Below are positions 5,250 to 27,473 of a stretch of DNA of 29,816 nt, piece after piece; the stretch's first letter is position 1, and every line of letters begins with the position of its first letter. The position numbers were made by a program, and so were the translations under genes. This stretch comes from an uncultured Planctomycetia bacterium (GTDB lineage Bacteria; Omnitrophota; Gorgyraeia; JACOVV01): contig CAYJQR010000013.1 of the NCBI GenBank assembly GCA_964372345.1, forward strand, positions 1 through 29,816, written 5' to 3'. Under the pieces are notes generated by a model. That model worked only from the letters and a program-made list of their open reading frames with translations. It was not told where the DNA came from and made no database searches.

Positions 5250-6518
5250 ATGACGATTGAATTGACTTTTGATTCGCTCAAACTTCACCCAAATCTGCTC
5301 AAGGGAATTCACAATATGGGCTACCTGCGCCCGACCCCGATTCAAGCGCAGGCGATTCCGGCTATTATTGATGGACGGGACGTCATCGGCTGTGCCCAGA
5401 CCGGGACAGGGAAAACCGCGGCTTTCGTTTTACCGATTCTGAACCGGCTCCTTCAGGGGCAAAGCCGCAAAAACGTCCGCACCCTCATTGTGACGCCGAC
5501 CCGTGAGCTGGCTCTGCAGGTGATGGAACATTTGCGAGACCTCTCTAAGTTCGTCCACTTAAAAGGGGCGGCCATTTTTGGAGGAGTCCCGATGTCGCCG
5601 CAGATCAGCGCTCTTGCCAGAGGAGTAGACATTATCTCCGCGACTCCCGGCCGGCTTCTCGACCACATTTATTCAGGACGGATTGACTTTGCCGACCTGG
5701 AGGTTTTTGTGCTGGATGAGGTAGACCGGATGCTGGACATGGGATTTCTCCCAGACATCCAAAAAATCATTCGTCTATTGCCTCCCAAACGCCAGACTCT
5801 TGTCTTCTCCGCGACGCTCCCGCCGGAAATTCGGACTCTTGTTGATAGGATACTCACCAATCCTGTCACGATTCAGATCGGCCAGCGTTCCAGTACCCCA
5901 GTCGGCATCCGGCACGCCATCTATCCGGTCCCGCGACATCTGAAAACAGATCTACTGGCACAGCTCTTAAGAGGACAGGGGATGACGTCGGTTCTCGTCT
6001 TCACCCGGACAAAGCACTACGCGGATCGTCTGGCCCAAACGCTGCTAAAGAGGGGATTAAGAGTTTCAGTCATGCACGGAGACCGCAGTCAGAGCCAGCG
6101 ATTGCATGCCATGGAGGAATTTCGCCGAGGCCGCAACCAGATTATGGTCGCCACCGACGTCGCCGCTCGCGGGATTGACATTGACGACATCAGCCATGTC
6201 GTTAACTTCGACATTCCCGACACACCCGAAAACTACATCCATCGAATCGGCCGAACCGCCCGCGCCGAAGCGACCGGGGACGCTTTTACCCTTGTCGCAC
6301 CCGATGAAGAAGAGATGGTGAAAGAAATCGAAAAAATGTTGAAACAATCGCTCCCGCGCGTGACGCTTCCGGATTTTGATTACAAGAAATCAGCTCCCCC
6401 CAGACAACACGGCCTCTCCGCGCCCCGCGGCAGAGGATCTTTCTCTCATTCGCAACGCCACCACTCAGGGCCGCCCCGCCGGCAGGGACAAGGCCACCGC
6501 CGCCCCCGTTTCGGCTGA
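5250..6518 (+). CDS. DEAD-box ATP-dependent RNA helicase (RhlE-like, with Arg/Gly-rich basic C-terminal tail)
   Basis: Helicase motifs are present: Q-motif region, AQTGTGKT (I), PTRELA (Ia), DEVD (II), SAT (III) and HRIGRTAR (VI). The C-terminus is R/G/H/P-rich. Confidence 0.9.
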   Translation: MTIELTFDSLKLHPNLLKGIHNMGYLRPTPIQAQAIPAIIDGRDVIGCAQTGTGKTAAFVLPILNRLLQGQSRKNVRTLIVTPTRELALQVMEHLRDLSKFVHLKGAAIFGGVPMSPQISALARGVDIISATPGRLLDHIYSGRIDFADLEVFVLDEVDRMLDMGFLPDIQKIIRLLPPKRQTLVFSATLPPEIRTLVDRILTNPVTIQIGQRSSTPVGIRHAIYPVPRHLKTDLLAQLLRGQGMTSVLVFTRTKHYADRLAQTLLKRGLRVSVMHGDRSQSQRLHAMEEFRRGRNQIMVATDVAARGIDIDDISHVVNFDIPDTPENYIHRIGRTARAEATGDAFTLVAPDEEEMVKEIEKMLKQSLPRVTLPDFDYKKSAPPRQHGLSAPRGRGSFSHSQRHHSGPPRRQGQGHRRPRFG

Positions 6519-6694: not shown

Positions 6695-6787
6695 GGAGAG
6701 GTGGGTGAGCGGCTGAAACCAATCGCCTGCTAAGCGATTGATCTCCCAAAAGGGGGTCCCCGGGTTCGAATCCCGGCCTCTCCGCCA
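6695..6787 (+). tRNA. tRNA-Ser (anticodon GCT), long variable arm, CCA encoded
   Basis: Acceptor stem GGAGAGG/CCTCTCC. Anticodon stem ATCGC/GCGAT with loop CTGCTAA. T-arm CCGGG-TTCGAAT-CCCGG. Discriminator G. Confidence 0.85.
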
Positions 6788-6812
6788 TACCGTCGCCCAA
6801 AGGGCGACGGTA
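6788..6812 (+). terminator. Perfect 11-bp stem-loop (TACCGTCGCCC-AAA-GGGCGACGGTA) immediately 3' of the tRNA
   Basis: Read directly. No U-tract follows, so it is more likely a processing or structural element than a classic intrinsic terminator. Confidence 0.3.
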
Positions 6813-6894
6813 TGGCGAGATCCGTTATAAGGTGGTGCAACACGAAACTTGGCGAGACGAACTCTCCGTCAAGCCCGCATAAATCAGAATAGGC

Positions 6895-7137
6895 ATGCAT
6901 TATGTTTACATTCTTCTCAATGAATCAAAAACAAGAACATATACCGGCGTCGCCAGAGATGTTGAGAAAAGACTACAAGATCATAATGACGGTAAAGTCA
7001 ACTCGTCCCGTCCATATCGTCCTTATCAGATCATTCACACCGAATCATTTGAAACATTGAGTGAAGCTCGACAAAAAGAGAAATTCTATAAATCAACAAC
7101 TGGCCGCAGAAGGTTGAAAGAAATCCTTTTTCGGTGA
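6895..7137 (+). CDS. GIY-YIG domain nuclease family protein (80 aa, YhbQ-like)
   Basis: N-terminal HYVYILLNESKTRTYTGVARDVEKRLQDHN fits the GIY-YIG signature (YxYIL...Y.G.T.dl.rR...H). It lies next to a tRNA at the island edge. Confidence 0.7.
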   Translation: MHYVYILLNESKTRTYTGVARDVEKRLQDHNDGKVNSSRPYRPYQIIHTESFETLSEARQKEKFYKSTTGRRRLKEILFR

Positions 7138-7205
7138 ATCCTTTTCAGTCTCGATCTCTGAACCCCCTTCCTTTTATTCCTCAAAAGGTATATATTAAAT
7201 GTTAA

Positions 7206-7451
7206 ATGCCGAAGATTCGATCCATGAAAACAGCCATAGACCCCAAAAAACTAGGCAAAAAGATCAAGCTGGCCCGGGTGGAGCAGGACCTGACCCAAAC
7301 CCAACTGGCCGACCTCATCCAGGCCAAGCAAAAGAGCATTTCCCGGTATGAAGGTGGCTTGTCCATGCCATCCGTAGAGACCCTGGTCAAAATCGCTAAG
7401 ACTCTTAGAAAACCTACGGCTTACTTCTTGGAAGATGAGGGAAAGGTATGA
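7206..7451 (+). CDS. XRE-family helix-turn-helix transcriptional regulator (possible controller of the adjacent Mrr cassette)
   Basis: LTQTQLADLIQAKQKSISRYEGG is a Cro/C1-type HTH. A TATATT box lies upstream. The true start may be the second ATG at 7224. Confidence 0.7.
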   Translation: MPKIRSMKTAIDPKKLGKKIKLARVEQDLTQTQLADLIQAKQKSISRYEGGLSMPSVETLVKIAKTLRKPTAYFLEDEGKV

Positions 7452-7454
7452 AAG
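7372..7454 (+). repeat. Direct repeat copy A (3' end of the XRE gene)
   Basis: About 80 bp, roughly 88% identical to 9312..9392 (ccgtagagaccctggtcaaaatcgctaagactcttagaaaacctacggcttacttcttggaagatgag...). Confidence 0.7.
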
Positions 7455-7506
7455 CTAATCAGTATTATTTCGGTTGTCGTTAGTCGTTAACGAAGAAAGG
7501 ATATAC

Positions 7507-8424
7507 ATGGCAATACCAGATTTCCAATCAACCATGCTTCCACTGCTTCATTTTACAGCCGATGGGAGCGAACGGTCATCTCGAGAAGCAATCGAAGGGT
7601 TAGCTGAAAAATTCGGGCTTACGGATGCCGAAAGAAAAGAACTGTTGCCAAGTGGACAGCAATTTACTTTTGATAATCGGCTTAATTGGGCTCGAACCTA
7701 TATGAGCAAAGCCGGCCTGTTGGAACCGACACAACGCGGGTATTTCCGGATAACTCAACGTGGCAAGGAAGTACTTGCGAAAAATCCCTCTACGATTAAT
7801 GTAAAGTTTCTAGAACAATTCCCTGAGTTCATAGAATTCAGAACTAAACACCGAGAACAAAAAGAAACTAAAGCAGCGATCGAAACGGAAACCCTCCAAA
7901 CACCTGCCGAATTGCTTGAAACTGCGTATCAGAAACTTCACGAAGATCTGTCTGCCGAGCTTCTGAAGAACGTGAAGGAAGAATGTTCTCCTACTTTTTT
8001 TGAACGTCTTGTTATCGACCTTTTGGTAAAAATGGGCTATGGCGGCAACCGAAAGGAAGCAGGGAAAGCCATTGGACGGAGCGGCGATGAAGGAATTGAC
8101 GGAATCATCAACGAAGATCGTCTTGGGCTTGATGTCATCTACATTCAGGCGAAGCGATGGCAGGCGCCGGTCGGGCGTCCAGAAATTCAAAAATTCGCCG
8201 GCGCCCTACAAGGACATCGCGCAAAGAAAGGTATCTTTATCACAACTTCTGCCTTTACCAAAGAAGCCGAGGATTATGTCGCGAAAATCGATTCGAAGAT
8301 TGTCCTAATAGACGGCGAACAACTCGCTCAGTTCATGATTGATCACAACATTGGAGTAACTTCGGTTGCCTCATATGAAACCAAGAGGATCGACTCCGAT
8401 TACTTTGCCGAAGGGGCGGCGTAA
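7507..8424 (+). CDS. mrr: Mrr-family type IV (modification-dependent) restriction endonuclease
   Basis: N-terminal winged helix (MAIPDFQSTMLPLL...). Mrr catalytic core LVIDLLVKMGYGG...GRSGDEGIDGI...DVIYIQAKRW. A GAAAGGA Shine-Dalgarno sits 6 nt before ATG 7507. The in-frame upstream TTG at 7474 was rejected. Confidence 0.85.
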   Translation: MAIPDFQSTMLPLLHFTADGSERSSREAIEGLAEKFGLTDAERKELLPSGQQFTFDNRLNWARTYMSKAGLLEPTQRGYFRITQRGKEVLAKNPSTINVKFLEQFPEFIEFRTKHREQKETKAAIETETLQTPAELLETAYQKLHEDLSAELLKNVKEECSPTFFERLVIDLLVKMGYGGNRKEAGKAIGRSGDEGIDGIINEDRLGLDVIYIQAKRWQAPVGRPEIQKFAGALQGHRAKKGIFITTSAFTKEAEDYVAKIDSKIVLIDGEQLAQFMIDHNIGVTSVASYETKRIDSDYFAEGAA

Positions 8425-8457
8425 CATCCGCGTACTGAAAAGAGAAAGCCATAGAAA

Positions 8458-9222
8458 ATGTCTCAATACTACAACGCCAAACGGTCTAGAAATCTTTTTG
8501 ATCCAGAATCACGTGAACCATTCAGATTAAGCCGGACGAAAATTGAATTATTCATCGGTTGTCCGCGTTGTTTTTACCTTGATCGGCGACTAGGAATAGA
8601 TCGTCCTCCCGGCTTCCCATTTAATTTAAACTCGGCAGTAGACACCCTTCTCAAAAAAGAATTTGATCTCTATCGCGCCAAAGGGACTGCCCATCCCTTC
8701 ATGAAAACCTATGGAGTGGATGCTGTCCCTTTTCAGCACGAGAAAATCGAAGAATGGCGGGATGCTCGCAAACGAGGGATTACTTATTTACACCAACCTA
8801 CAAATCTTCTCATCACAGGCGGAGTGGATGACGTATGGATTAACCCTGACAGGGAATTAATCATTGTTGATTACAAAAGCACCTCAAAGAATGGAGAAGT
8901 AGACATAGGCGCCGATTGGCAGATGTCTTACAAGAGGCAAATGGAAGTCTACCAATGGCTGTTTAGGCGAAACAATTTCAAAGTCTCATCAACCGGATAT
9001 TTTGTGTATTGCAACGGGATTACAGATAAAGAATCCTTTAACAATAAACTGGAATTTAATATCAAGCTGATTCCTTACGAGGCAAATGACGCTTGGGTTG
9101 AGGAAACGATCCACGACATCCACAAATGTCTGTTGAGCCACAATATCCCTGATCTGGAAGAGGAATGCGATTATTGCCAGTATTATGATGCGCTGAGATC
9201 AGCAGATGTTTTGGTAAAATGA
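8458..9222 (+). CDS. Cas4/RecB-like PD-(D/E)XK nuclease with four-cysteine cluster
   Basis: The IIVDYKS stretch looks like a (D/E)xK core. Flanking CPRC (N-terminal) and CDYC (C-terminal) pairs resemble the Fe-S ligation pattern of Cas4/AddB-type nucleases. It lies 33 nt downstream of mrr. Confidence 0.65.
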   Translation: MSQYYNAKRSRNLFDPESREPFRLSRTKIELFIGCPRCFYLDRRLGIDRPPGFPFNLNSAVDTLLKKEFDLYRAKGTAHPFMKTYGVDAVPFQHEKIEEWRDARKRGITYLHQPTNLLITGGVDDVWINPDRELIIVDYKSTSKNGEVDIGADWQMSYKRQMEVYQWLFRRNNFKVSSTGYFVYCNGITDKESFNNKLEFNIKLIPYEANDAWVEETIHDIHKCLLSHNIPDLEEECDYCQYYDALRSADVLVK

Positions 9223-9269
9223 TTGATCTATGTGAAAAGGCTGGCTTTGGCCGAGAGACACCAAAATAG

Positions 9270-9392
9270 GAAGCGCTATCAAATATTTCTGAGTGCGGAT
9301 TATTCATAACACCCATAGAGTCCCTAGTCAAAATCGCTAAGACTCTTAAAAAACCCACGGCTTACTTCTTGGAGGATGAAAGAAATGAAAGG
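9270..9392 (+). pseudogene. Start-less 3' fragment of an XRE regulator gene (repeat copy B, displaced gene end)
   Basis: In frame it reads ...ITPIESLVKIAKTLKKPTAYFLEDERNERT*, compared with the intact XRE C-terminus SVETLVKIAKTLRKPTAYFLEDEGKV*. There is no start codon. DNA identity to 7372..7454 is about 88%. Confidence 0.55.
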
Positions 9393-9497
9393 ACATAAAG
9401 TTTAATCAGCTCGAATCGGTAAAAACGTTCTATTATACGTTTATTTGAAGACTTCCAAAGGGGCCGATTTGGGGGTGGAATTGATTTTCTCCAAGAG

Positions 9498-10748
9498 ATG
9501 GTGAAAGTTGGGAAGGCAATCCCGTCGGAGGACGAAGTGAGGAATCTTGAGTTACCAGGAGAAGGTCAATATAAACTGCCAAACGACACCGAGGTTTCCA
9601 ATGAGCTATTGCCGGATCTCCAAGAGAGTGAAGAACGCCAACGGTATTTAAAATTGGCATTAGCACTTCCAATCTCTGAAATATTATTTTCGGTGAGATC
9701 AAAAAATTGTTTAAAAAATCTAAGGATACAACATTTGAAAGATTTAGTTTTGTTGAGCAGAGATCAAATTTTATCCCAGAAGAATGCCGGGAAAAGAAGC
9801 CTAAAGGAGATGAGCGATTTCTTAAATCAGTTGGAACTCGATTTAGGAATGAATTTAACGTCCTCATTATTGAAAGCTATAGAATGGCAGATAAAGAGCG
9901 TTCGGGATCCCGAAAAGCTGATGGAGGATTTTCGTAATTCCTACCCTGAAAAAACCATTGTACTAAAAGAAGTCCGAATCCAAACCATTAAGCCTGAACG
10001 GATGGAATTTTATAAGCCTTGTTTTGAATTATACACGCATGGCGGGACGCTTCAATCTGTTGCTATGGCCATGAAATTGACGCGTGAAAGAATCCGACAG
10101 ATTTTGATAAAGGGGACTGCGTATAAGTTATTCGAGTATAATGGCCGTGAATATCCATATATTTTAAAAGCAAAACTACTTTCAGATTTGAGCAAATACC
10201 CAAGCATGAGTACGGTTTCCAAAATTAATAAAATATCAACGGTATATTTAAAAAGATTACTTCTTGCTTATCACATTACGTCTGAGCAAATGGAGGAATT
10301 TAAGGAAAGGTCCCGGAAGCAACAAGCTATAGAAGATTTCAACGCTGTGAGAGATCAACTTGGCCATAACCCAACGACAACGGAGTTGCAAGCAAATGGG
10401 GAATGGAGGTCTCTTGGAAATAGAATTAGACGGAATTGGGGTAATTTTCAAGAATTTCGGCAAGCGTTAAATATTCCGCCACCACCACCATTTGCTGAAG
10501 TAACCAAACGGTGGATCGAACACAGATCTCGTTTGGCTCTGATTCGGAGAATGCAAGATTTGGATTCAGTTAGAGATTGTCTCGAGAAGTTGGGACCCCT
10601 AAATACATCCGAAATTGCTAGGCGATGCCAATTGAAATCGATGAGAGCGTTTAAATTAACACAACTGCTCTTGGCAACGGGAGAAGTGTCACGTGACGGC
10701 GTGGGAAGCCAGACCAAATACAGAATAAGTAAGATCGGAGGGAGATAA
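9498..10748 (+). CDS. Multi-HTH DNA-binding protein: RNAP alpha-CTD-like domain + sigma-70 region-4-like HTH + HNH-associated-repeat-like motif
   Basis: LFSVRSKNCLKNLRIQHLKDLVLLSRDQILSQKNAGKRSLKEMSDFLNQLELDLGMNL parallels RpoA alpha-CTD ([57 protein letters not shown]). GGTLQSVAMAMKLTRERIRQI resembles sigma-70 region 4. LGHNPTTTELQANGEWRSLGNRIRRNWGNFQEF resembles the GRxPT...FGSW repeat. Its stop abuts the next gene's start. Confidence 0.6.
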   Translation: MVKVGKAIPSEDEVRNLELPGEGQYKLPNDTEVSNELLPDLQESEERQRYLKLALALPISEILFSVRSKNCLKNLRIQHLKDLVLLSRDQILSQKNAGKRSLKEMSDFLNQLELDLGMNLTSSLLKAIEWQIKSVRDPEKLMEDFRNSYPEKTIVLKEVRIQTIKPERMEFYKPCFELYTHGGTLQSVAMAMKLTRERIRQILIKGTAYKLFEYNGREYPYILKAKLLSDLSKYPSMSTVSKINKISTVYLKRLLLAYHITSEQMEEFKERSRKQQAIEDFNAVRDQLGHNPTTTELQANGEWRSLGNRIRRNWGNFQEFRQALNIPPPPPFAEVTKRWIEHRSRLALIRRMQDLDSVRDCLEKLGPLNTSEIARRCQLKSMRAFKLTQLLLATGEVSRDGVGSQTKYRISKIGGR

Positions 10749-12434
10749 ATGAAGATAATTACAAAAACGAAACTGCAAATCAAAGATCAGGGCGAGTTGC
10801 TAAACCAAATTGCAGGCACCTATAAAGACTTTTTTAGAGCGGCTATGGAGTACATCGATAATTCGGTTGATGCGGCTACCGGATTACAGCAAGATGGGAA
10901 GAAATTTTCTGCCAAAATTCATATAGAAGTCGACCCTGACAAGAAGACAGTCTCTTTTGCTGATAACTGTGGGGGAATGTCGCCTCAGGAATTGTGCGAG
11001 TTATTATCAAATGTGGGCCGGTCTAGAAAAAAGGCAGTTTCTTGGGCTAATGGACAATTTGGATTTGGCGTTCACGCCTTTAGAGCTTTTGCTAGGGAAG
11101 CTATTTTTATAAGTCGGAAGAAGAATTGTAAAGAAGCAATGATAAAGATAGATCGCACAGTCCATGAAAACCAAGATGTCCCATGTGTAGAAACGGATGT
11201 GAAACAGCTTAAGGAGCCGGGAACGCGGGTTATTATTTCTCGATTTGATTCACATGTTTTTCAAAAGGCCACTTTCGTCAAAACTTTAGCCGCTGAAGTC
11301 GAACATCATTTCGACGATGTCTTGAGGGCTAAATTAGCACGTATCTCTATTTCTGAGAAAGATAAAAGATCGCACGAATGTTCCCATTTCGATTTCGACT
11401 CGCTACCAGGTCCTGTTTTGAAAAAAACTTTTTCTTTGATGTCTGATGGAAAACAAAGCGAAATTGAAGTTGATTTAAAGGTTTTAGATCGTGTTCAAGA
11501 TAACAGATTCCCTGTTCTCACAAATAAATGTCGACGAGTTCAAAATATTTCTGATTTGAAAAGCTATAAAAACTTTTTGAGAACAAAGGGAGAGATAAGT
11601 TACATATGGAACAACCCTTTTGTGGTTGGCTCCATTGAAATTAACGGTTTTTGCTCTCCAAATTTAACCAGAGACGACTTAAAGGATTTAAAAGAACGCG
11701 AGCAACTGTACGAAAAGATATGCGAAGTACAGAATGATCTGAAGCACTTGATTGATGAAACGATGGATAAAAAAACTAGGGAATCATTTCGAAGAATTGG
11801 AAGTATAATGTCGGATTGCCTGGCTCAAATACTTAAAAATTTTAAGCTTGAATTCGAACAATTAGCTCCTTCAGGCATTACCGGGAATCTTGCGGAACAT
11901 ATTGAAGAAGGAAACGGGAAAATACCATTCGGCGGTGACGATGAGCCGGGTGGCGGTGGACCAGGTCCAAATGAAGAAGGTTCGGGGGGTAGACGATCTG
12001 ACGAAGGCAGATCAGGTGTTGGTAAAGATGAAAAAGGTGGCGGAGCTAATGATAAAAGAAAAACTTCTGGCCAAGGAGGAGCATCGACGGAAAAAATTAT
12101 TCAATCGCCTGGACCCAGGATCGAATTTCAAAATCATGCCGGAGAAGACAGAGTTATCGATTTAGGAAACTCCCTTATCGTCAACACACAGCATTCGGAT
12201 TTCATATTAAGGAATCCACGATCAACAGGTAAGATCAAATTCGACGTTAGGTTATTGAATTACGTCTCTCAAGTTGTGTCTCCATATTGTGTCCACAGAC
12301 TATTCGAGCGTAAAGGAAAAGTACCGTCCGTATCAGAAGTTGGGGCAAATGTAATTAATCTAAGTTTGAATCTCGAAAAAGAGTTGCTTAAAACCGTTTT
12401 GGGGACAGAAATAGATACAATGGTATATGCCTGA
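10749..12434 (+). CDS. GHKL (Bergerat-fold, MORC/MutL-like) ATPase with Gly-rich low-complexity segment
   Basis: N-box EYIDNSVDA, G1 box DNCGGM and G2 box GQFGFGVHA are present. A GGAGGGA Shine-Dalgarno precedes the ATG. Residues about 395-450 form a G/D/E/K-rich disordered stretch. Confidence 0.8.
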   Translation: MKIITKTKLQIKDQGELLNQIAGTYKDFFRAAMEYIDNSVDAATGLQQDGKKFSAKIHIEVDPDKKTVSFADNCGGMSPQELCELLSNVGRSRKKAVSWANGQFGFGVHAFRAFAREAIFISRKKNCKEAMIKIDRTVHENQDVPCVETDVKQLKEPGTRVIISRFDSHVFQKATFVKTLAAEVEHHFDDVLRAKLARISISEKDKRSHECSHFDFDSLPGPVLKKTFSLMSDGKQSEIEVDLKVLDRVQDNRFPVLTNKCRRVQNISDLKSYKNFLRTKGEISYIWNNPFVVGSIEINGFCSPNLTRDDLKDLKEREQLYEKICEVQNDLKHLIDETMDKKTRESFRRIGSIMSDCLAQILKNFKLEFEQLAPSGITGNLAEHIEEGNGKIPFGGDDEPGGGGPGPNEEGSGGRRSDEGRSGVGKDEKGGGANDKRKTSGQGGASTEKIIQSPGPRIEFQNHAGEDRVIDLGNSLIVNTQHSDFILRNPRSTGKIKFDVRLLNYVSQVVSPYCVHRLFERKGKVPSVSEVGANVINLSLNLEKELLKTVLGTEIDTMVYA

Positions 12435-13321
12435 TGAAAGCTAATGTTCAGACTATAATTAAAGCGATATCGGATTCAAATAATAGATATCGGGATTCCT
12501 CCTCAGATACAAGAACCAAGCTTGAAGCTCTGTGGAATATTGGAGATTGTCTTGTGCGGCTTGGCGTAAATAAGCCGCATTCGATGGGATGGATCGTACA
12601 AAAAGAGACAAAAGGTCTCATTAAGAGGCCAACAATATTTCGAAGTTTCAAAATTCGTCAAATATGGAACTCAAAGGACGATCTTCTGCGTGATATCGGG
12701 AATATTAAAGGGGTCAACTTCTTGATAGACATGTTGCCGTTAATCGATCCTCGGCAAGAAGTTCGAAAGAAGCTTAAGGAAGATGAAATTAAACAAATCT
12801 ATAAGAAGGCATGTGCTAGTTCTGTGGGTCAATTCAAAAGTTATATTGTAGAATTGAAAACTAAATATTCTCACGATAGGCTTGGCAAACGGCTAGATAA
12901 GTCGAAACACTTGGTAGAAATAGAATTTGTAACTAAGAATTTCGGCTCATTGCAACGTTTTCTTCTAGGTCTCATCCAGCAAAAGGAAAGTACTGGGCGT
13001 GATAGATTCAGACAAGAAATCAAGCGTGAGGAATTTCGCGCTTTTTCCAATATGTGTATTTCCCTAACGACCAAAAACAATATCCGTTTATATAAGAAGG
13101 CAGGGGTTTCTCTTTCGAATACAGAGAATCAGCAGTTTAAAGTTTTGTACGATTATTTTTACTCAATTCTCAATAAAGCAGCTGACACGGAACGCGCAAG
13201 AGTTCGTCGCTTGATTTCTCCAGAAGCTTTTGCGCAAATGTCTGATATTATCTCTTCGATTCAAAATGAAGAAAGTTTAGACGACTTTAGACTTAGACAA
13301 CAATTATCAATAGGGCTGTGA
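12434..13321 (+). CDS. Hypothetical protein (295 aa), candidate effector/nuclease partner of the GHKL-Dam operon
   Basis: The start overlaps the upstream stop by 1 nt (TGATG) and the stop lies 1 nt before the methyltransferase start. No family motif was recognised. Confidence 0.6.
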   Translation: MKANVQTIIKAISDSNNRYRDSSSDTRTKLEALWNIGDCLVRLGVNKPHSMGWIVQKETKGLIKRPTIFRSFKIRQIWNSKDDLLRDIGNIKGVNFLIDMLPLIDPRQEVRKKLKEDEIKQIYKKACASSVGQFKSYIVELKTKYSHDRLGKRLDKSKHLVEIEFVTKNFGSLQRFLLGLIQQKESTGRDRFRQEIKREEFRAFSNMCISLTTKNNIRLYKKAGVSLSNTENQQFKVLYDYFYSILNKAADTERARVRRLISPEAFAQMSDIISSIQNEESLDDFRLRQQLSIGL

Positions 13322-13322
13322 C

Positions 13323-14222
13323 ATGCAACCATTTCTAAAATGGGCTGGTGGAAAACGTTGGCTGATCCCCAAGATTAAAGACAGCATCCCTCCGTTCAGA
13401 ACTTATTTTGAACCATTCTTAGGAAGTGCCGCCCTGTTCTTTGCATTGGAACCTAAGTCGGCAATTTTATCGGACACCAATCCGGAACTCATAGGTTGTT
13501 ACAGAGTTATCAAGAACCATTGTGAGTCTATGATCAAAGTATTAGAGAGATTAAAGATTACAAAATCGGATTATTACGCAATTCGAGAAAAATTTAATAG
13601 TGGGAACGAACCAATTAAGAAAGCAGCATACTTCATTTATCTGAACAAAACTTGCTGGAATGGTCTTTACCGCGTGAATAACCACGGCAAATTTAACGTG
13701 CCAGTCGGTACGCACCTTCAGCGTGGGTATAAGGTCTTCGACGCGGATCATTTGAAGAATGCTAGTCGTCTTTTAAATCGGGCCATAATTAAACGGTGCG
13801 ACTTTGAAGAAGCAACAAAGGATGCTAGAAACAAAGATCTCGTATACTTTGATCCTCCTTATATAACAACGCATTTAAAGAATGGTTTTATCAAATATAA
13901 CTCCGTCTTATTTCACCAGTCTGATGAATTGCGATTGGCAAAAGTGGCGGAAAAACTGGCTAAGCGTAGAATTCAAGTAATTCTAAGTAATGCCGCTCAC
14001 CCACTAATAAAACAACAATATAACGGATGTTTTTACAAAACGGAAATATTACGGCCTAGCCTAATTGCTGGGGATCCCTCGAAAAGGACAAGGTTTCTTG
14101 AGCTTCTTGTTACTAGTTTTCCACTGACTATAGAGACCAGAGAATATTCGGAGCGCCAAGATGAAGCTATTCCTAAAGATGTACGGTATAAGCCTTTTTA
14201 TAATCCAAAGTGTAAATTTTGA
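13323..14222 (+). CDS. Dam-family (D12 class, alpha-group) N6-adenine DNA methyltransferase
   Basis: N-terminal LKWAGGKRWLIPKI...FEPFLGSAALFF matches the AdoMet motif. The catalytic motif IV is VYFDPPYITT, compared with E. coli Dam VYCDPPYAPL. Confidence 0.85.
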   Translation: MQPFLKWAGGKRWLIPKIKDSIPPFRTYFEPFLGSAALFFALEPKSAILSDTNPELIGCYRVIKNHCESMIKVLERLKITKSDYYAIREKFNSGNEPIKKAAYFIYLNKTCWNGLYRVNNHGKFNVPVGTHLQRGYKVFDADHLKNASRLLNRAIIKRCDFEEATKDARNKDLVYFDPPYITTHLKNGFIKYNSVLFHQSDELRLAKVAEKLAKRRIQVILSNAAHPLIKQQYNGCFYKTEILRPSLIAGDPSKRTRFLELLVTSFPLTIETREYSERQDEAIPKDVRYKPFYNPKCKF

Positions 14223-14309
14223 AGACTGCGCGTAAATATGGGATCGAGTTTGGGCATTGGACAGAGTAGGAAATAGAGACGGTTCTTGTTTTTGACCGCG
14301 AAGTGATAA

Positions 14310-14537
14310 AATAAAAACCGCCCCTATTTATTATCGAAGAATTCGCCATCCGCCAAAGGGCAGGATGAAATCGTTGGATTCGTTAAAAAGCGGCTGGAAC
14401 TCGGAAGAGCGGCTGAAGGAAAAACTCCCGAAATTGAGGAGATTGAGCGGGCCATCAACGTTGCTGTTTATCGCCTTTACAGCCTCACAAAAGAAGAAAT
14501 TACCATCGTAGAACAGTGTGGGGTGAAAGATAAATAG
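14310..14537 (+). pseudogene. C-terminal remnant of a type IIG/Eco57I-like (gamma-class N6-MTase-containing) restriction-modification enzyme
   Basis: A start-less ~75-codon frame ends ...KTPEIEEIERAINVAVYRLYSLTKEEITIVEQCGVKDK*. That is the characteristic ...ID.lVy.LYgLTeEEI.iVE C-terminal helix of Eco57I/PglX/TaqI-type enzymes. An in-frame stop lies immediately upstream. Confidence 0.4.
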
Positions 14538-14539
14538 TT

Positions 14540-15127
14540 ATGGATATTAATGATATCCAAGAGCTGCATTTTATTACGGATATAAAGAATGTTGATTCGA
14601 TTATGCGAGAAGGTATTCTGTCGCATAACAAGGCGGGTAGAATTCCTCATCGCTCGATTGCGGAGCAGGGTGTTCAAGAGCGCAGGCAAAATAAAAAAAT
14701 TCCCGGCACAAACAAACGTTTGCATGATTATACAAATCTGTATTTCAATGCCCATAATCCCATGCTTAGTGCGAGAAGGCAGCTGAATGATTCGATTTGC
14801 GTCTTGCGCATCAATAAACATGTTTTGTCTATAGAAGGGGTTATCATCACAGATCAAAATGCAAGCAGGGATTGTTGGTTCAAGCCGGTATCCGAGGGAT
14901 TACCATTACTGAAGCATGAAGAGATTTTTGCTGAATTTTGGATCAATAGAGAAGATCCAATGGAAGAATATCGATTGAAGGGCATAAAATGCGCTGAAGT
15001 CTTAGTGCCAAAGTGCGTTCATCCATCACACATTTTATCGGCATACGTAGCCAATAATACTGCGCTGAGCGATTTTAAAAAGGCGTCGACTTTATCTGTG
15101 CAAATTAATGGGAATTTGTTTTTCTAA
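14540..15127 (+). CDS. darT: DarT, ssDNA thymidine ADP-ribosyltransferase toxin (DUF4433)
   Basis: LHFITDIKNVDSIMREGILSHN...RSIAEQGVQERRQNKKIP...LHDYTNLYFNAHNPMLSA...CAEVLVPKCVHPSHI follows the DarT pattern (hFTHi.NL.sIL, HDYVPFYF, catalytic-Glu EvLV). A macrodomain gene lies directly downstream. Confidence 0.7.
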   Translation: MDINDIQELHFITDIKNVDSIMREGILSHNKAGRIPHRSIAEQGVQERRQNKKIPGTNKRLHDYTNLYFNAHNPMLSARRQLNDSICVLRINKHVLSIEGVIITDQNASRDCWFKPVSEGLPLLKHEEIFAEFWINREDPMEEYRLKGIKCAEVLVPKCVHPSHILSAYVANNTALSDFKKASTLSVQINGNLFF

Positions 15128-15138
15128 AGGGGGGTATC

Positions 15139-16251
15139 ATGGAAATCTTAATCGGGGATATATTCAACTCTAAAGCGCAGACATTAATTAACACTGTGAA
15201 TTGTGTCGGCGTTATGGGCAAGGGAATTGCGGCCGAATTTAAAAAACGCTATCCGGAGATGTTTGATGATTACATTTCACGATGTCAAAAAAGAGAAGTC
15301 AAGCCCGGCATTCCTTATTTGTTTAAAACCTCGTCATTGTTTGTTCCACAAGTCGTCAATTTCCCTACAAAGACCGATTGGCGCGCGGCATCTCATGTTG
15401 AGGACATAGAGAAGGGTTTGAAGATTCTTGTGTCAAAATACAAAGAATGGGGGGTTAAGTCAATAGCCGTTCCCCCATTGGGTTGTGGCAACGGGCAGTT
15501 ATTATGGGAAACCGTAGGACCTTTGATTTATAAATATCTGTCCAAATTGGATATCCCGGTTCAAATGTATGCTCCATATGGCGCCCCGTCAGTTCAATTG
15601 ACGGAAAAATATCTTTCCCGGGCGTTTGACTTGAAGGAATCCAAGTCAGAAGATGCTATTCTGCAAAAGATGAACCCTGCTTGGGCTTCACTGGTCGAGA
15701 TAGTGTATCGTCTCGAAAAACAGACTTACCATTTGCCTGTAGGCAGAACTATTTTTCAGAAGATAGCATATGTCGCTACAGCGCTTGGCATCCCTACTGG
15801 GCTGGGCCATGTTCGTGGACCCTATGGCCCATATTGTAAGGCACTGGATGATGTTAAGAAAAGATTGTCAAACGCGGGATTGTTGCAGGAAGAAAGACTC
15901 GGGCCTATGTTTCAACTTGTTCCGGGACATGCTTATGAAAAGGATCGTTCAAAATATCAGGACAGCTTTCGAAAATGGGGCAGCCTGATCGATAAAACAG
16001 TTGACCTTTTTCTTAGGCTAGATACCCATAAGGCAGAGATTGTAGCTACCGTTTTGTATACAGAGAGGACAATAAATAAAGGGCGCACGACCGAGAAAGA
16101 TGTCCTTAATGAGGTTGTGAAATGGAAACAAAAACGCCGTCCTCCGCTCAATGAAATAGAAGTGGCCGAAACAATTCGTAATTTAGGAATACTAAAATGG
16201 TTTGATTTGAAACCATCAACCGATATGCCAATTCAGGACGATTGGGTCTAA
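15139..16251 (+). CDS. darG: DarG, macrodomain DNA ADP-ribosylglycohydrolase antitoxin
   Basis: N-terminal macro domain LINTVNCVGVMGKGIAAEFKKRYPEMFDDY...VVNFPTKTDWRAASHVEDIEKGL...IAVPPLGCGNGQLLWETVGP closely parallels DarG (VNTVNTVGVMGKGIALQFK...PLGCGNGGL). A strong AAGGGGGG Shine-Dalgarno is present. It lies 11 nt after darT. Confidence 0.75.
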   Translation: MEILIGDIFNSKAQTLINTVNCVGVMGKGIAAEFKKRYPEMFDDYISRCQKREVKPGIPYLFKTSSLFVPQVVNFPTKTDWRAASHVEDIEKGLKILVSKYKEWGVKSIAVPPLGCGNGQLLWETVGPLIYKYLSKLDIPVQMYAPYGAPSVQLTEKYLSRAFDLKESKSEDAILQKMNPAWASLVEIVYRLEKQTYHLPVGRTIFQKIAYVATALGIPTGLGHVRGPYGPYCKALDDVKKRLSNAGLLQEERLGPMFQLVPGHAYEKDRSKYQDSFRKWGSLIDKTVDLFLRLDTHKAEIVATVLYTERTINKGRTTEKDVLNEVVKWKQKRRPPLNEIEVAETIRNLGILKWFDLKPSTDMPIQDDWV

Positions 16252-16606
16252 TTACACGAAAGTTTAATAAACAGCAAAGTTCCTGCCTCTTTCGAGCGAA
16301 AAAGTACCAGGCGGTTATCCACAGGGACAACGATGGTTATGAGATTTTACGGTAATCGGCTTCTTTGAGAATAAAGACGTGATGTTGAAGCACCAGTTTA
16401 AAGAGAATCGGTTCCGATTTTAATGCATTAAAGATCCTTCAATCATTAAAGTGTTAAGGAATCTTCCGAAGATCAAAAACCCAACCGTCTTTTTCCCCTA
16501 AAACGTCCCATCAGGGCTAAAACCATCAAAAAATTCAAATGGGAAATAGTGGACGGTACCGTTGCCTTTTGCTAAACTATTTTTTTTGGAAGGGTCCAAA
16601 ATCAGG

Positions 16607-17776
16607 ATGCCAAATGAGTCAAAGGATTGCGAAAAATCAACCCCGAAACAAATGCATTTTAAGATACCCAAACTAGATAAGTTGGTTGGGATTATCGATG
16701 ACGTTATCCCCGCAGGCGAGACTGGCAGAATCATGGTCAAAGGGTTCCTGACATCGGATGACCCAAAGTTCCATATTGCAGCCGACCACATCTCCGCGAT
16801 TCTTCTAAACAAGCACGTCCAGACAGACTCGGTAAATACATTCTTGGCCCTCCTGCATCAGGATCAGTCTGCTGATGTATACGTAAACGACATCGCTATT
16901 GGCATTCAGGTACATGCCAAACGATCACTGGTCAAGGGGGAAGCCGTGAGAGTGAACGACATCGTCGACATTAAAGCTCTGCGTTTTCTGGAAATCAAAG
17001 TTGAGCAAACGGACAATATCATATTTCTGTTCAAAAAAGGGTGGAAGTTCGGGTTCTTCCTCAACTTGCAACAGTGGGAGGGAAAGAATAAATTGGATGT
17101 TGCGAGTCTTGAGAGGGAACTTGGGGATTACTACAAATACCTGGCTTTTGAGAAAGAATTGAAGGTTATAGAGGACAAGCAGTCGTTTGAGGAGTTATTT
17201 GATGATGGGTGGTTCCCGTTTATCCAGTTGCTCGGAGGAGAGTATCCAGAGCTTGGTCACATCTACCAGACAGGTGAGAAATCAGGTGAACCAATGGAGC
17301 AATTCCTGAATAAGTTCGGTCAGGAACGGATAGCCCGTATGAAGCAGAACTGGTGGGATTGTCCCGTGTTCGCTGCCAAGAAAGTAATCATCGAAGCGGC
17401 TCTTTCCTCGTATCTTTTGATGACCGGCACAGGATTTATCAACTGCATCAAGAATCTCTATTCCGAGATTGAAGGAGTTATCCGAGTGAGCTGTCACCGG
17501 AAGACTGGTCAAAAACCCACTTTTTCAAAATTGGTGACCTTCCTGGAACACAAGGCAGCAAATAAGTTCACATCTATCAACTCCCTTGCTTTTCCACCGA
17601 TATTTGCAAAGTATCTCAGAGAGGTGATTTTCAAGGATTTCGACCTTTCAACAGGGCAAGTAGACATATCACGGCACTCAGTGGTTCATGGTGTTGCCGA
17701 GGCTGTTGCATATTCGCGAGCTAAAGCTCTTCAGTCGATTCTCACACTCGATCAAATTTACTTTTACCTCATATGA
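16607..17776 (+). CDS. Hypothetical protein (~390 aa), possible C-terminal HEPN-like Rx4H motif
   Basis: Long ORF in the AT-rich island. The first ATG in the frame was chosen. No clear family match. ISRHSVVHG near the C-terminus fits the HEPN Rx4-6H pattern; this is weak evidence. Confidence 0.55.
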   Translation: MPNESKDCEKSTPKQMHFKIPKLDKLVGIIDDVIPAGETGRIMVKGFLTSDDPKFHIAADHISAILLNKHVQTDSVNTFLALLHQDQSADVYVNDIAIGIQVHAKRSLVKGEAVRVNDIVDIKALRFLEIKVEQTDNIIFLFKKGWKFGFFLNLQQWEGKNKLDVASLERELGDYYKYLAFEKELKVIEDKQSFEELFDDGWFPFIQLLGGEYPELGHIYQTGEKSGEPMEQFLNKFGQERIARMKQNWWDCPVFAAKKVIIEAALSSYLLMTGTGFINCIKNLYSEIEGVIRVSCHRKTGQKPTFSKLVTFLEHKAANKFTSINSLAFPPIFAKYLREVIFKDFDLSTGQVDISRHSVVHGVAEAVAYSRAKALQSILTLDQIYFYLI

Positions 17777-17814
17777 TGGGAGGAGTAACATAATAGTTAG
17801 GGGGAAAATTGCTA

Positions 17815-18336
17815 ATGAGTTACGTGATGGTAGATGTTGAGGCGGATGGGCCAATCCCGGGAGATTATTCAATGATCTCTTTTGGAGCGGTTATTGTTGA
17901 ATCAGCGCTATCGAAAACCTTTTATGGGAAATTAAAACCGATCTCAGGAAAGTGGGAACCGGAGGCATTAAAGGTGAGTAGATTGACTCGTGAAGAAACG
18001 TTAAGTTTTGAAGATCCGAAATCCGTTATGGAAAGGTTTGCTGTTTGGATCAGGGAAAGCTCAAAAGACAGGCCGATCTTCATATCGGACAACAATGGTT
18101 TCGATTGGCAATTCATTAACTGGTATTTTCACCATTTCTTGGGGCAGAATCCATTTGGTTTTTCATCAATGAATCTGGGGTCGCTCTATAAGGGGCTTGT
18201 TCGGGACACGTTCAAAAACTTTAAGCATCTGCGTAAAACAAAACACACGCATCATCCTGTTGATGACGCGAAAGGTAACGCGGAAGCGTTATTAGAACTG
18301 AATCGAGAGTTTGGTCTGAAAATGCAGTTTGAATGA
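17815..18336 (+). CDS. Stand-alone DEDDh (DnaQ-like) 3'-5' exonuclease, 173 aa
   Basis: Exo I motif VMVDVEADGP, Exo II ISDNNGFDWQFINW and Exo III HTHHPVDDAKGNAEALLEL (H-x4-D) are present. An AGGGGGA Shine-Dalgarno lies 8 nt upstream. It sits 38 nt after the preceding gene. Confidence 0.75.
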   Translation: MSYVMVDVEADGPIPGDYSMISFGAVIVESALSKTFYGKLKPISGKWEPEALKVSRLTREETLSFEDPKSVMERFAVWIRESSKDRPIFISDNNGFDWQFINWYFHHFLGQNPFGFSSMNLGSLYKGLVRDTFKNFKHLRKTKHTHHPVDDAKGNAEALLELNREFGLKMQFE

Positions 18337-18338
18337 AA

Positions 18339-18542
18339 CTAGGAAACAGTACTTTCTTTGATATAAACCTCAAAAGAGTTATTTCGTAACCGTATCCCGC
18401 GTATTCGCGATTTTGGAATCCAGGTTTTTATTCCTGCATCAACTAATACTGCCTTTTCGGTCTCGTGTAAGAAGCGAACCCGGATCCAAATGTGTGTCTC
18501 TTGAGGACATAGAAGCCAATAGAAACCAAATGGCCGGATCAT
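18339..18542 (-). CDS. Small hypothetical protein (67 aa)
   Basis: An internal ATG is preceded on the minus strand by AAGGAGA at ideal spacing. The longer 122-aa form would add an Ala/Arg/Ser low-complexity N-terminus encoded by a GC-rich tandem repeat, which is judged unlikely. Convergent with the exonuclease gene, 2 nt apart. Confidence 0.4.
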   Translation of the reverse strand: MIRPFGFYWLLCPQETHIWIRVRFLHETEKAVLVDAGIKTWIPKSRIRGIRLRNNSFEVYIKESTVS

Positions 18543-18610
18543 GGGTTTGTCTCCTTGAACTGGCAGGCACTGACCACGGTCTTCTTGCTTACGTTTAGGC
18601 TTTTGGCGAT

Positions 18611-18705
18611 CTTCGGGCCAGTGGCTTCCCTCGGCTTCCCTCGGCTTCGCCAGTCTCGCCGAGGCTAGGCGGGCCGAGAGGCGAGCGCCACTAGGCGAGC
18701 GAGAC
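18611..18705. repeat. GC-rich tandem/palindromic low-complexity element (GGCTTCCCTC x2, GGCTTCGCC, CTCGCCGAGG..., GGCGAGCG x2)
   Basis: Read directly. It is a local GC-rich patch within the AT-rich island, lying in the 5' region of the minus-strand small gene. Confidence 0.4.
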
Positions 18706-18766
18706 ATGCCTAAAAGTCGCAGTTGGTTTACCTTTTGGGCGAGTTTTTGATATAGTAGTGAGGCCT

Positions 18767-19383: not shown

Positions 19384-19471
19384 GGAGAGGTGTCCGAGCG
19401 GCCGAAGGAGCCGGTCTCGAAAACCGGTAGAGGCTTTAAGCTTCTCGTGAGTTCGAATCTCACCCTCTCCG
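19384..19471 (+). tRNA. tRNA-Ser (anticodon CGA), long variable arm, no encoded CCA
   Basis: Acceptor GGAGAGG/CCTCTCC. Anticodon stem CCGGT/ACCGG with loop CTCGAAA. T-arm GTGAG-TTCGAAT-CTCAC. Discriminator G. Confidence 0.85.
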
Positions 19472-19525
19472 TTCTTCTTCGCCCTTCACCAACTGAGATG
19501 ATGGTAGGGCTTCGAAGCAACGATC
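19472..19525 (+). repeat. tRNA 3'-trailer element, copy 1 (TTCTTCTTCGCCC...GATGATGGTAGGGCTTCGAAG)
   Basis: Shares its core with 19613..19665 and 22884..22935, and partly with 21778..21806. Confidence 0.5.
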
Positions 19526-19537
19526 GACGGCCTTTAC

Positions 19538-19612
19538 GCGCCAATAGCTCAGCCCGGATAGAGCACCTGCCTACGAAGCAGGTTGCCGCAGGTTCAAATC
19601 CTGCTTGGCGCA
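19538..19612 (+). tRNA. tRNA-Arg (anticodon ACG)
   Basis: Acceptor GCGCCAA/TTGGCGC. D-arm GCTC...GAGC. Anticodon stem CCTGC/GCAGG with loop CTACGAA. T-arm GCAGG-TTCAAAT-CCTGC. Discriminator A. Confidence 0.85.
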
Positions 19613-19665
19613 TTCTTCTTCGCCGTTCGACAAGAAAGATGATGGTACGGCTTCGAAGGAATATG
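19613..19665 (+). repeat. tRNA 3'-trailer element, copy 2 (TTCTTCTTCGCCG...GATGATGGTACGGCTTCGAAG)
   Basis: See copy 1. Confidence 0.5.
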
Positions 19666-19784
19666 TTCCTGCGAAGCCCCACCGAGATTTTTCTCTTGTG
19701 TGGGGCGTAGAAGAATTCGATTCCCCTTGTGGATGGAATCTCTCCCGTGATAAAACTATAGATACCAAGAAAGGGGAGAACACT

Positions 19785-21777: not shown

Positions 21778-21808
21778 TTCTTCTTCGCCCCCACGGTGGG
21801 GCTTCGCT

Positions 21809-21979
21809 ATGTCCATAAAAATAACTTTTGATAATAATTTTTGGGAATCTTATGAACAATTGGATGCAGAGCAAAACGATATCTTCATCCACGCCTTCAC
21901 ATCACATCGGTTTTCGTTCTATCCAACGAACGAATTCTTAGAGAAGACGCTTGCGCTCTATAATGGCGAAACTCAATAA
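21809..21979 (+). CDS. Small hypothetical protein (56 aa)
   Basis: An ATG-initiated ORF just after tRNA-Ser(GGA), with no recognisable features. The longer ORF from 21725 would run through the tRNA. Confidence 0.25.
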   Translation: MSIKITFDNNFWESYEQLDAEQNDIFIHAFTSHRFSFYPTNEFLEKTLALYNGETQ

Positions 21980-22049
21980 TTTGAGAACAATTCAGACGAT
22001 TTCACCCATCACCATCAATCAGTAAGAAAAGCCGGAATCGTTTCCACAA

Positions 22050-22433
22050 TTATGCCACAGTGACTAAACCATTGCCGAAATCTACCGTCAGTTTTCGCTT
22101 CCGGAAGAAATCCAGCCCAAGAACACCGTCCACGGTGGCGCTAGGAGGGAGCGTGTGGCAGAGAACAGAAAAATCGTTATGGGTCAATTCGAACGCCTGG
22201 ATTTTATGCAGTTTTATTTGTGGAACGAATTCTACCCCACTGCCGGTGGTCATTTGGATCCTGTTTGAGATAGAAGCAGGATCATAGCCCAGTAGAACAA
22301 TCAAATCCCAGTTAACCATCGTTTGGGTTGCGCCGGTATCTAGGGCAAGGCGGACGATGGTGTCACCGCTAGGGCCGTGTAGCCGTGTGGGGACGATGAT
22401 GAGACCTTTTTGGGGATCAAAAGGAAGGTTCAC
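22050..22433 (-). CDS. Retropepsin-like (clan AA) aspartic protease
   Basis: LALDTGATQTMVNWDL carries the D-T-G-A active-site motif. About 127 aa. GTG start overlapping the upstream gene stop (GTGA). Confidence 0.65.
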   Translation of the reverse strand: MNLPFDPQKGLIIVPTRLHGPSGDTIVRLALDTGATQTMVNWDLIVLLGYDPASISNRIQMTTGSGVEFVPQIKLHKIQAFELTHNDFSVLCHTLPPSATVDGVLGLDFFRKRKLTVDFGNGLVTVA

Positions 22434-22657
22434 AGGACAACTACTGTCTCGTCGGGAAGAAAACCGGTGTACAGGATAGCCGAGTGTCTGGGGCGCAATT
22501 GTCTGGCTTTTCGGTAGACCTCATCACGGTCTTTGCTATGGCACAGAACGGTCCCTTTTTTGATTTGTAAATCTTCGCCGGTCTCTGGACTGTCCACTAG
22601 TACCCACTCTGAATCGAACCTGGATTGGATTTCAGAAAAAGTCAAAGTCTCACTCAT
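22430..22657 (-). CDS. Small protein (75 aa) translationally coupled to the retropepsin-like protease
   Basis: A strong GGAGGTGA Shine-Dalgarno lies 6 nt upstream on the minus strand. Its stop overlaps the protease start. Confidence 0.55.
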   Translation of the reverse strand: MSETLTFSEIQSRFDSEWVLVDSPETGEDLQIKKGTVLCHSKDRDEVYRKARQLRPRHSAILYTGFLPDETVVVL

Positions 22658-22867
22658 TGTTCTTCACCTCCACCTATAAACAATTTTACCATAAGTGGTG
22701 AGATTGTCGAACCAAATTTGTGCCCAAATTGTGTCCAAACTACTTCAAACCCCATCGCAATAGATAGAACCAATGTAAACAGTAGAAAGTGATAACTGCT
22801 TGAAATTTCAGCAGGATTCGTTTATCCTGTTGTACAGTCGGAGGTTGGGAAAAATGGCGTTTGAAGG

Positions 22868-22935
22868 ATTCCCACCCTCTCCGTTCTGCTTCGCCCTGCG
22901 CAAAGTAAGATGATGGTAGGGCCTCGAAGGAACAA
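22868..22935 (+). repeat. Orphan tRNA-Ser(GGA) 3'-end fragment plus trailer element copy 3
   Basis: GATTCCCACCCTCTCCG (T-loop end, T-stem 3' half, acceptor 3' half, discriminator) is followed by TTCTGCTTCGCCC...GATGATGGTAGGGCCTCGAAGG. It is a direct repeat of 21763..21790, and no tRNA 5' half lies upstream. Confidence 0.55.
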
Positions 22936-22958
22936 GTTCTGTAACGTTTCTACGTAAA

Positions 22959-25213: not shown

Positions 25214-25420
25214 CACTGAATGAGAGGAGGCTTCAGGTTCCACCCCAGTCACCGACCCAGAGGGTCCCTGAATTTTTGGTACTCAACAAAGCCAGGATTT
25301 GAGGTAGATAGAGTTGCCGTGCTGGGTTTTGAAAATCAGTGAGATAAAAGGGCGAAGAGGAAGGGTCAGAAAAAATGCGGCCTACCCCTTGACAACGGGA
25401 AATCATAGGGTAGACTTGTG

Positions 25421-27223: not shown

Positions 27224-27287
27224 TTTGTCTCCATTTTTTAAACTTGCTCCCTAAACTAAAGTGTCTTAAGATACCCATAGACAATCT

Positions 27288-27462: not shown

Positions 27463-27473
27463 CCATTAATATC

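Follow-up and report, generated by a model that had tools for sequence, protein, structure and literature searches.

Within a 29,816-nt stretch of DNA from an uncultured Planctomycetia bacterium placed by GTDB in the Omnitrophota (contig CAYJQR010000013.1, positions 1 to 29,816 of the forward strand; hereafter the window), an intact XRE-family regulator gene with a helix–turn–helix (HTH) domain (7224..7451, plus strand; alternative start 7206) stands ahead of an mrr gene and a nuclease gene, and a headless copy of its own 3′ end (9290..9398, plus strand), which we call the relic, lies behind them. The relic is a dead, 5′-truncated and start-less XRE pseudogene and forms no part of a longer intact gene. 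Calling the regulator gene the head of its module, we lean, with modest confidence, towards the reading that the relic is what remains of a second, co-resident head that was truncated at a module junction and later partly homogenised with the intact copy. The feature is of a known type and fairly ordinary: a scar left by a pseudogene in a tRNA-linked defence island of mosaic make-up.

A headless copy of the XRE gene

The 3′ end of the XRE gene does recur downstream, as an earlier note made from the letters of this DNA alone had reported. Positions 7349–7444 (repeat copy 1, plus strand, the 3′ end of the intact gene) match 9290–9385 (copy 2) in a gapless alignment offset by 1941 nt throughout, with 79 of 96 nt identical (82%); over the span given in that note (7372–7451 against 9313–9392) identity is 68/80, or 85%, where about 88% had been stated. 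The likeness is uneven along the match, with 25 of 37 nt shared in the 5′ part (7349–7385; 68%) and 50 of 53 in the 3′ part (7386–7438; 94%, range 92.5–94%), a contrast with a Fisher p of 0.001–0.004. The longest exact run, 22 nt, falls inside the 53-nt stretch, and the flanks downstream of the two copies differ.

Compared with the rest of the family, it is the 3′ part that stands out. Pairs of family members have a mean identity of 67% in the stretch equivalent to 7386–7438 (sd 8.7, 99.9th percentile 94.7%), which puts the two window copies at or above about the 99.8th percentile; in 7349–7385 their 68% is simply the family average.

The resemblance of the relic to an XRE gene is not due to chance, since an nhmmer profile of 68 family genes finds only two matches in the window, one at 7233–7442 (E = 1.9e-53) and the other at 9288–9384 (E = 5.2e-14), the latter spanning model positions 118–220 of 225. 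The relic was also recovered by tblastn, and a low-stringency tblastn search with 120 family proteins gave no third XRE remnant in the window, for example none before the DarT gene described below. Read in frame, the relic translates as EALSNISECGLFITPIESLVKIAKTLKKPTAYFLEDERNERT, matching the text of the earlier note, between an upstream in-frame TAG (9267–9269) and a terminal TAA (9396–9398); there is no usable start codon, and the list of open reading frames (ORFs) of at least 30 aa holds no entry for this frame. The description of the second copy as a start-less ORF fragment was right in its main point, though the frame ends at 9398 and not at 9392. What is kept corresponds only to family residues ~39–67. 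HTH helices 1 and 2 are absent, and as a protein the relic would fall outside HTH_3. Three nearly invariant residues are changed (S47F, P49T and S50P), as is the invariant T53 (T53S), all of them in the 5′ half of the relic.

The scar and the blocks that flank it

Between the repeats lie only mrr (7507–8424) and the gene for a four-cysteine PD-(D/E)XK nuclease (8458–9222), as had been noted before. The two make up a block of homology (7505..9230, plus strand) that is common to L003, L004, L005, L006 and L093 (loci from other genomes are cited by such numbers), where it sits at another locus. Against L003 8226–9950 identity is 92.4% over 1726 nt, and the homology extends from 2 nt ahead of the mrr ATG to 8 nt beyond the nuclease stop. 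In the L003-type genomes the block lies ~6 kb upstream of a helicase gene, behind another tRNA-Ser-like gene and an uncharacterised 203-aa ORF, with no XRE gene and no repeat on either side.

Mrr carries Mrr_N (PF14338, 5.7e-33) and Mrr_cat (PF04471, 4.3e-38) and matches PADLOC mREase_IV at 1.6e-94. The nuclease fits PDDEXK_1 (5e-14, 53 bits), and its earlier label of Cas4-like does not hold: PF01930 reaches 20.1 bits, short of its cut-off of 22.7, and no cas gene or other Cas family was found among the island ORFs scanned.

Within the block, mrr is ~97% identical to L003 in nucleotides (98.7% in amino acids), the nuclease gene ~88% (88% in amino acids) and core genes ~92.5%, which suggests that mrr and the nuclease have different histories. 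The nuclease gene was found in four contexts, among them L001, where it lies (87% nt) within a few bases of a close XRE homologue (80% nt) and no mrr is present, and L092, where it stands alone (87% nt) among other neighbours and its homology again ends at the gene borders (8439–9227). The Mrr family spans many phyla at 75–86% identity; the nuclease family has more than 8000 hits at ~65–70% identity with names mostly from Patescibacteria (candidate phyla radiation), whereas the neighbouring XRE family is mostly from Omnitrophota, which hints at exchange between phyla. Because the contexts in L003, L001 and L092 and the family distributions differ, XRE, mrr and nuclease do not travel as a unit. 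The mobile XRE–mrr–nuclease unit proposed in the earlier note has to be given up, as what L003 carries is mrr plus nuclease (7505–9230), at another site and with neither XRE gene nor repeat.

Downstream of the block, a scar of 336 nt (9231..9566, block ends by blastn) contains the relic and separates two independently conserved blocks. Neither the 59 nt before the relic (9231–9289), nor the 168 nt behind it (9399–9566), nor the spacer between XRE and mrr (7452–7504) has blastn or tblastx relatives among 92 loci. Next comes a module (9567..14220, plus strand) encoding a protein with RNA-polymerase alphaCTD and sigma-region-4 segments, a GHKL ATPase, a 295-aa protein and a Dam methyltransferase, with 84% nucleotide identity to L087 and L088 and 76% to L089. 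In these three loci, the first gene encodes 450–452 aa with two alphaCTD repeats, a conserved 70-aa ORF precedes it, and no XRE gene lies upstream of the module. The window's module is without the 70-aa ORF and ~85 codons, and its homology begins at 9567, inside an ORF annotated from 9498. Because this module is 5′-truncated as well, the relic sits in a scar of several breakpoints and at no clean insertion boundary. The notion that the relic marks a swappable defence cassette is partly borne out: it does mark a junction in a shuffled defence region, but the XRE–mrr–nuclease cassette that it was meant to mark is no unit.

A conserved head before varied cargos

The XRE protein (7206–7451) matches HTH_3 (PF01381) with 52.2 bits against a cut-off of 23 (6e-14) and has 977 homologues, many of them ~67 aa long and 75–87% identical with an invariant AKQKSIS.YE core. 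The closest begin MKTAIDPK, and source names are mostly Candidatus Omnitrophota. Exact-protein look-ups for the window's XRE protein (with either start), alphaCTD protein and nuclease returned no record. IMG/VR holds only two distant relatives, which argues that the family is not phage-borne.

We surveyed the family's neighbourhoods in 80 loci from species-representative genomes, counting as a downstream neighbour a same-strand ORF of at least 100 aa that starts within ~0.8 kb. The 66 copies with such an ORF are followed by highly varied genes, including RadC (8), ResIII (6), N6_Mtase of the HsdM type (5), N6_N4_Mtase (4) and Abi_2 (3), besides Eco57I-like, MmeI-like and Type ISP proteins, AAA_11/12 helicases and STAND NTPases. 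Upstream neighbours, with 73 copies considered, include small divergent ORFs as well as DUF3800 (9) and large serine recombinases (4); a resolvase gene lies near the XRE gene of L002, and several copies stand directly behind tRNA-Ser genes.

A 30-nt promoter- or operator-like motif, CTTCCTTTTATTCCTCAAAAGGTATATATTA, lies upstream of the window's XRE gene (7167..7197, plus strand) as a single copy and recurs at 84–97% identity in seven loci (L001 270–300, L002 1922–1951, L010, L025, L027, L043 and L060), a conservation that suggests a regulatory role. Its distance to the XRE gene ranges from ~30 nt to ~1.2 kb, and at the long distances another gene (for example DUF3800) apparently intervenes.

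Heads that share a genome are also alike. Nucleotide identity of XRE genes is 0.67–0.87 for pairs within one metagenome-assembled genome (MAG) against a mean of 0.66 between MAGs (Mann–Whitney p = 3e-6). L070 carries two complete heads 3 kb apart, with nearly identical upstream regions, coding sequences ~85–90% identical and divergence right after the stop codon. Given such pairs, a relic that resembles the neighbouring XRE gene is to be expected.

Truncated heads at other loci

Of the 54 full-length family copies that are followed by 2 kb or more of sequence, a single one has a downstream relic, at L041, a locus from an Omnitrophota MAG whose XRE gene is ~71% identical to the window's. The order there is GIY-YIG, XRE, DarT fragment, AAA_15/21 ATPase, DarG fragment, 3′ XRE relic and SNF2/PLD protein. 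The relic spans model positions 116–218, matches its own XRE gene at 95% and 88% in two segments and has an 11-nt deletion. The DarT–DarG fragments behind this head (6320–6415 and 8201–8417) are parted by the inserted ATPase gene, and in L083 (2729–3432) a DarT–DarG pair lies downstream of a degraded XRE gene.

Other heads are truncated at other points. Two copies in L084 are cut at model position 101, both having lost the same ~320 nt when compared with L070; the loss may go back to one old deletion and its later duplication, or a precise event may have recurred. The two unit copies (1421–1720 and 5802–6101, compared with L070 3031–3794) are ~78% identical over 300 nt, and across the deletion a divergent HTH ORF is fused to the XRE gene at position ~101. 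L085 has a copy cut at position 72 that abuts a tRNA-Ser gene, and L082 has one cut at position 64.

A tRNA-linked island missing as one piece

The window genes described so far belong to a ~12-kb defence island (6785..18766; delimited by GC content, blastn junctions, Pfam and PADLOC) with a GC content of ~0.40 against ~0.52 in the flanks. Its left anchor is tRNA-Ser(GCT) (6695..6787, plus strand; ARAGORN and Rfam), which is 99% identical to L003 up to 6784. In order, the island encodes a GIY-YIG protein, XRE, Mrr, the nuclease, the relic, the alphaCTD/sigma-region-4 protein, the GHKL ATPase, the 295-aa protein and the Dam methyltransferase, followed by DarT, DarG, a 404-aa protein and a DEDD exonuclease. 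Contigs of a relative whose core genes are ~92% identical in nucleotides (L003, L004, L005 and L093) stay collinear with the window as far as a DEAD-box helicase gene and the tRNA gene (99%) and then jump to 18767; the L003-type relative has 106 nt in place of 6785–18766 (blastn junctions at 6784 and 18767). No empty site was found for the 1.9-kb segment between the repeats, the kind of site that the earlier note had proposed to look for. Instead, in the few relatives compared (L003, L004 and L093), 6785–18766 is missing as one piece and mrr–nuclease lies at the other site.

The island's edges are exact, the right one lying at the ATG at 18767 and the left one after ...GGCCTCTCCG at 6784. Positions 6783–6817 form a perfect palindrome of 16 nt around a 3-nt loop (CGCCATACCGTCGCCC AAA GGGCGACGGTATGGCG), which begins in the last bases of tRNA-Ser, precisely where the island starts on its left; it may act as a terminator or as a recombination hairpin. 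No integrase or recombinase was recognised among the island ORFs examined, and the L003 junction alignment contains no copy of the tRNA 3′ end at the island's far end.

Origin of the relic

In the reading that we favour, the XRE family serves in Omnitrophota-type genomes as a conserved head, made up of a promoter and a ~67-aa HTH protein, before differing defence cargos and often behind tRNA-Ser. A deletion or an illegitimate joining at the junction of mrr–nuclease with the next module would have cost a second head its promoter and first ~55%, and the same event would have stripped the 5′ end of that module and left the 336-nt scar. On this view the relic is an older paralogue in decay, and its final ~53 nt would have become homogenised with the intact copy in recent times, with gene conversion across the 1.9 kb between the repeats as the most likely route. 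The step in identity within the relic from 68%, the family average, to 94% is in keeping with a conversion tract. The shuffled blocks around the relic and the 5′-truncated heads of L041, L084, L085 and L082 also speak for this account.

Several observations weigh against this account. No ancestral state with a full second XRE gene was found, before the alphaCTD module or before any cargo at this site. In L041 the start of the relic lies no more than ~10 nt from the corresponding point of the gene, and that relic is 88–95% identical to its own neighbour XRE, a recurrence that could point to a more regular, duplicative mechanism. Gene conversion is deduced from 90 nt only, and the identity step could have other causes.

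A displacement by insertion, as the earlier note had proposed, seems to us the main alternative, though a less likely one. Here, an incoming XRE gene or 3′ end, together with mrr–nuclease, would have recombined with a resident head and pushed the old 3′ end downstream as an orphan, either anchored at its left end by homology to the conserved gene and joined illegitimately at its right end (homology-facilitated illegitimate recombination) or by Campbell-type entry of a circle with a ~100-nt XRE fragment. Truncation and displacement yield the same final structure. In favour of displacement, the repeats bracket exactly two cargo genes with the left copy intact, similarity in either copy runs out near the stop codon, the family has the conservation that a portable patch of homology requires, and mrr and the nuclease are clearly mobile between contexts. 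L041 independently has the equal layout of intact XRE, cargo, 3′ relic and further cargo, with a left boundary at model position 116 against 118 in the window; the DNA just left of its relic, however, is a DarG fragment, which resembles the end point of a deletion. Against displacement, an incoming unit was seen nowhere, as the L003 block excludes the XRE gene, the 53-nt spacer and the 59-nt right flank; the sole empty site is that of the whole island, the island ORFs examined offer no recombinase, additional breakpoints flank the relic on either side, and the cut module to its right needs a further event. Heads that share a genome are in general similar, which already accounts for the likeness of the relic to its neighbour. 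Nor is the intact gene clearly a chimera, as its fall in identity to L001 and L002 towards the 3′ end recurs between L001 and L002 themselves.

A broader and more doubtful proposition is that the XRE head, besides being a regulator, is the portable homology patch of a recombination-based cassette system, in which cargos are captured, stacked and swapped behind tRNA-Ser by exchange within the head. If this were true, truncated 3′ heads, as in the window and L041, would be orphan footprints of displaced cargos that could be re-armed by loop-out of the cargo in front, and entire defence systems in Omnitrophota and neighbouring phyla would diversify in an integron-like or Rhs-like manner.

It is very unlikely that the 3′ end of the XRE gene is an att-like site (compare integron attI/attC or att sites in tRNA genes) at which a dedicated recombinase inserts and excises cassettes. 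Several relics do begin close together, in the stretch where the gene is best conserved (model positions 101 and 101 in L084, 116 in L041 and 118 in the window), and large serine recombinases lie immediately upstream of 4 of the 73 family copies, with the resolvase near L002. Other relics, however, begin at positions 64 and 72, the repeats are 82% identical with an exact run of at most 22 nt, and conservative recombination between full sites would leave two complete genes. The scar folds no better than shuffled sequence (9223–9500, z = 0.26) and has no Rfam hit, the family is almost absent from viral contigs, and the island ORFs examined include no recognisable recombinase.

Least likely of all is a function of the relic itself, whether it were to encode a small protein, give rise to a regulatory RNA or provide the next gene with a promoter or terminator, with selection preserving the last 53 nt: the 3′ 53 nt are indeed much better preserved than the 5′ 37 nt, and 5′-truncated heads are retained before cargo genes in several loci, but the relic has no start codon, an in-frame stop upstream, no HTH helices 1 and 2, downstream flanks unlike those of the intact copy, a fold no better than shuffles and, in a consensus scan, no promoter-like or terminator-like site, the total for 6780–9700 being no higher than in shuffled sequence.

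As the truncated remnant of a second head, the relic would have no function of its own. The one effect it is likely to have lies in the near-identical repeats of 53 nt, through which mrr–nuclease could be lost in a RecA-dependent way.

Relation to known systems

The XRE protein most likely acts as an autoregulated controller, repressor or activator, of its cargo, in the manner of the controller (C) proteins of restriction–modification (R–M) systems such as C.PvuII and C.AhdI; this assignment is drawn from the gene layout together with established knowledge of R–M C proteins. Like them, it is a ~70-aa HTH_3 protein encoded upstream of, and co-oriented with, defence genes. In the window, the small HTH gene lies directly upstream of a restriction gene in the same direction (XRE stop 7451, mrr start 7507), and family members precede HsdM, Res, methyltransferases and Eco57I-like and MmeI-like proteins. 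The differences are that the PADLOC Control_protein match is weak (E = 1.4e-5, 23 bits, compared with 4e-14 for the RmrA HTH and 8e-11 for capH), that near-identical XRE proteins also head cargos outside R–M (RadC, Abi_2, STAND and DarTG) and that the family is unusually uniform, with many homologues 75–87% identical to the window protein. Literature searches turned up no account of this XRE family at the head of defence genes.

In the polymorphic toxin loci of Rhs and CdiA, C-terminal displacement leaves orphan modules, which are start-less 3′ fragments downstream of the intact gene, each followed by an alternative cargo. The window is similar in layout only, with the relic (9290–9398) in the same orientation below an intact gene and the alphaCTD module after it, and L041 likewise; the repeat could also support swapping by homologous recombination. 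Here, however, the conserved gene is a regulator and not an effector, there is a single relic and the displaced cargo is itself truncated. The window locus offers no evidence of reactivation or of a donor allele.

Islands linked to tRNA genes and bounded by attL and attR share with the window the direct repeats of a gene's 3′ end that bracket inserted genes, and the whole island here stands behind tRNA-Ser; they differ in that no integrase was found among the island ORFs examined, that the repeats are not identical and that the empty site in L003 is that of the 12-kb island, for which the comparison with L003 shows no duplication of the tRNA end. Integron gene cassettes differ likewise in the integrase and in the structure and Rfam results for 9223–9500. 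Mosaic defence islands and hotspots with gene-by-gene turnover share with the window a low-GC block beside a tRNA gene, one- or two-gene blocks with gene-precise ends and leftover fragments, although here many blocks are led by one highly conserved regulator gene that leaves recognisable truncated copies.

The repeat by itself is an evolutionary scar, which records to the base how a defence island is put together out of gene-sized blocks and later worn down. Of more use may be the wider pattern, in which a single, nearly invariant regulator of 67 aa heads dozens of unrelated defence cargos in poorly studied phyla, its copies staying alike within genomes and its truncated copies marking old junctions. 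We envision the XRE head as an inexpensive sequence marker by which the defence cargos of Omnitrophota-type MAGs can be found, among them the unannotated module of alphaCTD protein, GHKL ATPase, 295-aa protein and Dam methyltransferase, and as a concrete test case for whether shared regulator genes drive cassette exchange.

Further observations in the window

The alphaCTD–GHKL–295aa–Dam module may be an undescribed defence or epigenetic system. It extends over 9498–14222 in the window, 5366–10406 in L087 and 4179–9214 in L089, and its first three large genes have no PADLOC match. The first protein combines tandem RNA-polymerase alphaCTD repeats with a segment like sigma-70 region 4, the second belongs to HATPase_c_3 (GHKL) and the 295-aa protein matches no Pfam family. 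A scan of genome contigs with the alphaCTD protein gave no relative; in L087 the module lies near an NrS-1-like primase-polymerase. Farther along the island, 14540–16251 holds an intact DarT–DarG (macrodomain) pair.

A second segment, 21791–27286, is apparently missing in L003, which has ~0.5 kb there between its tRNA-Ser(GGA) and tRNA-Arg matches. The segment includes a stretch with a GC content of 0.36–0.42 and a 601-aa ORF of no Pfam family, and it ends at a degenerate tRNA-like sequence (27293–27357, Rfam 31.9 bits) just before tRNA-Arg(CCG) (27388–27465). On the window, Rfam reported tRNAs only. Finally, a repeat of 55–70 nt occurs with 86–91% identity at 19468–19521, 19613–19684 and 22880–22941 and at L003 7461–7535; two of the window copies directly flank tRNA-Arg (19538–19612), and the L003 copy lies just after a tRNA-Ser-like gene.

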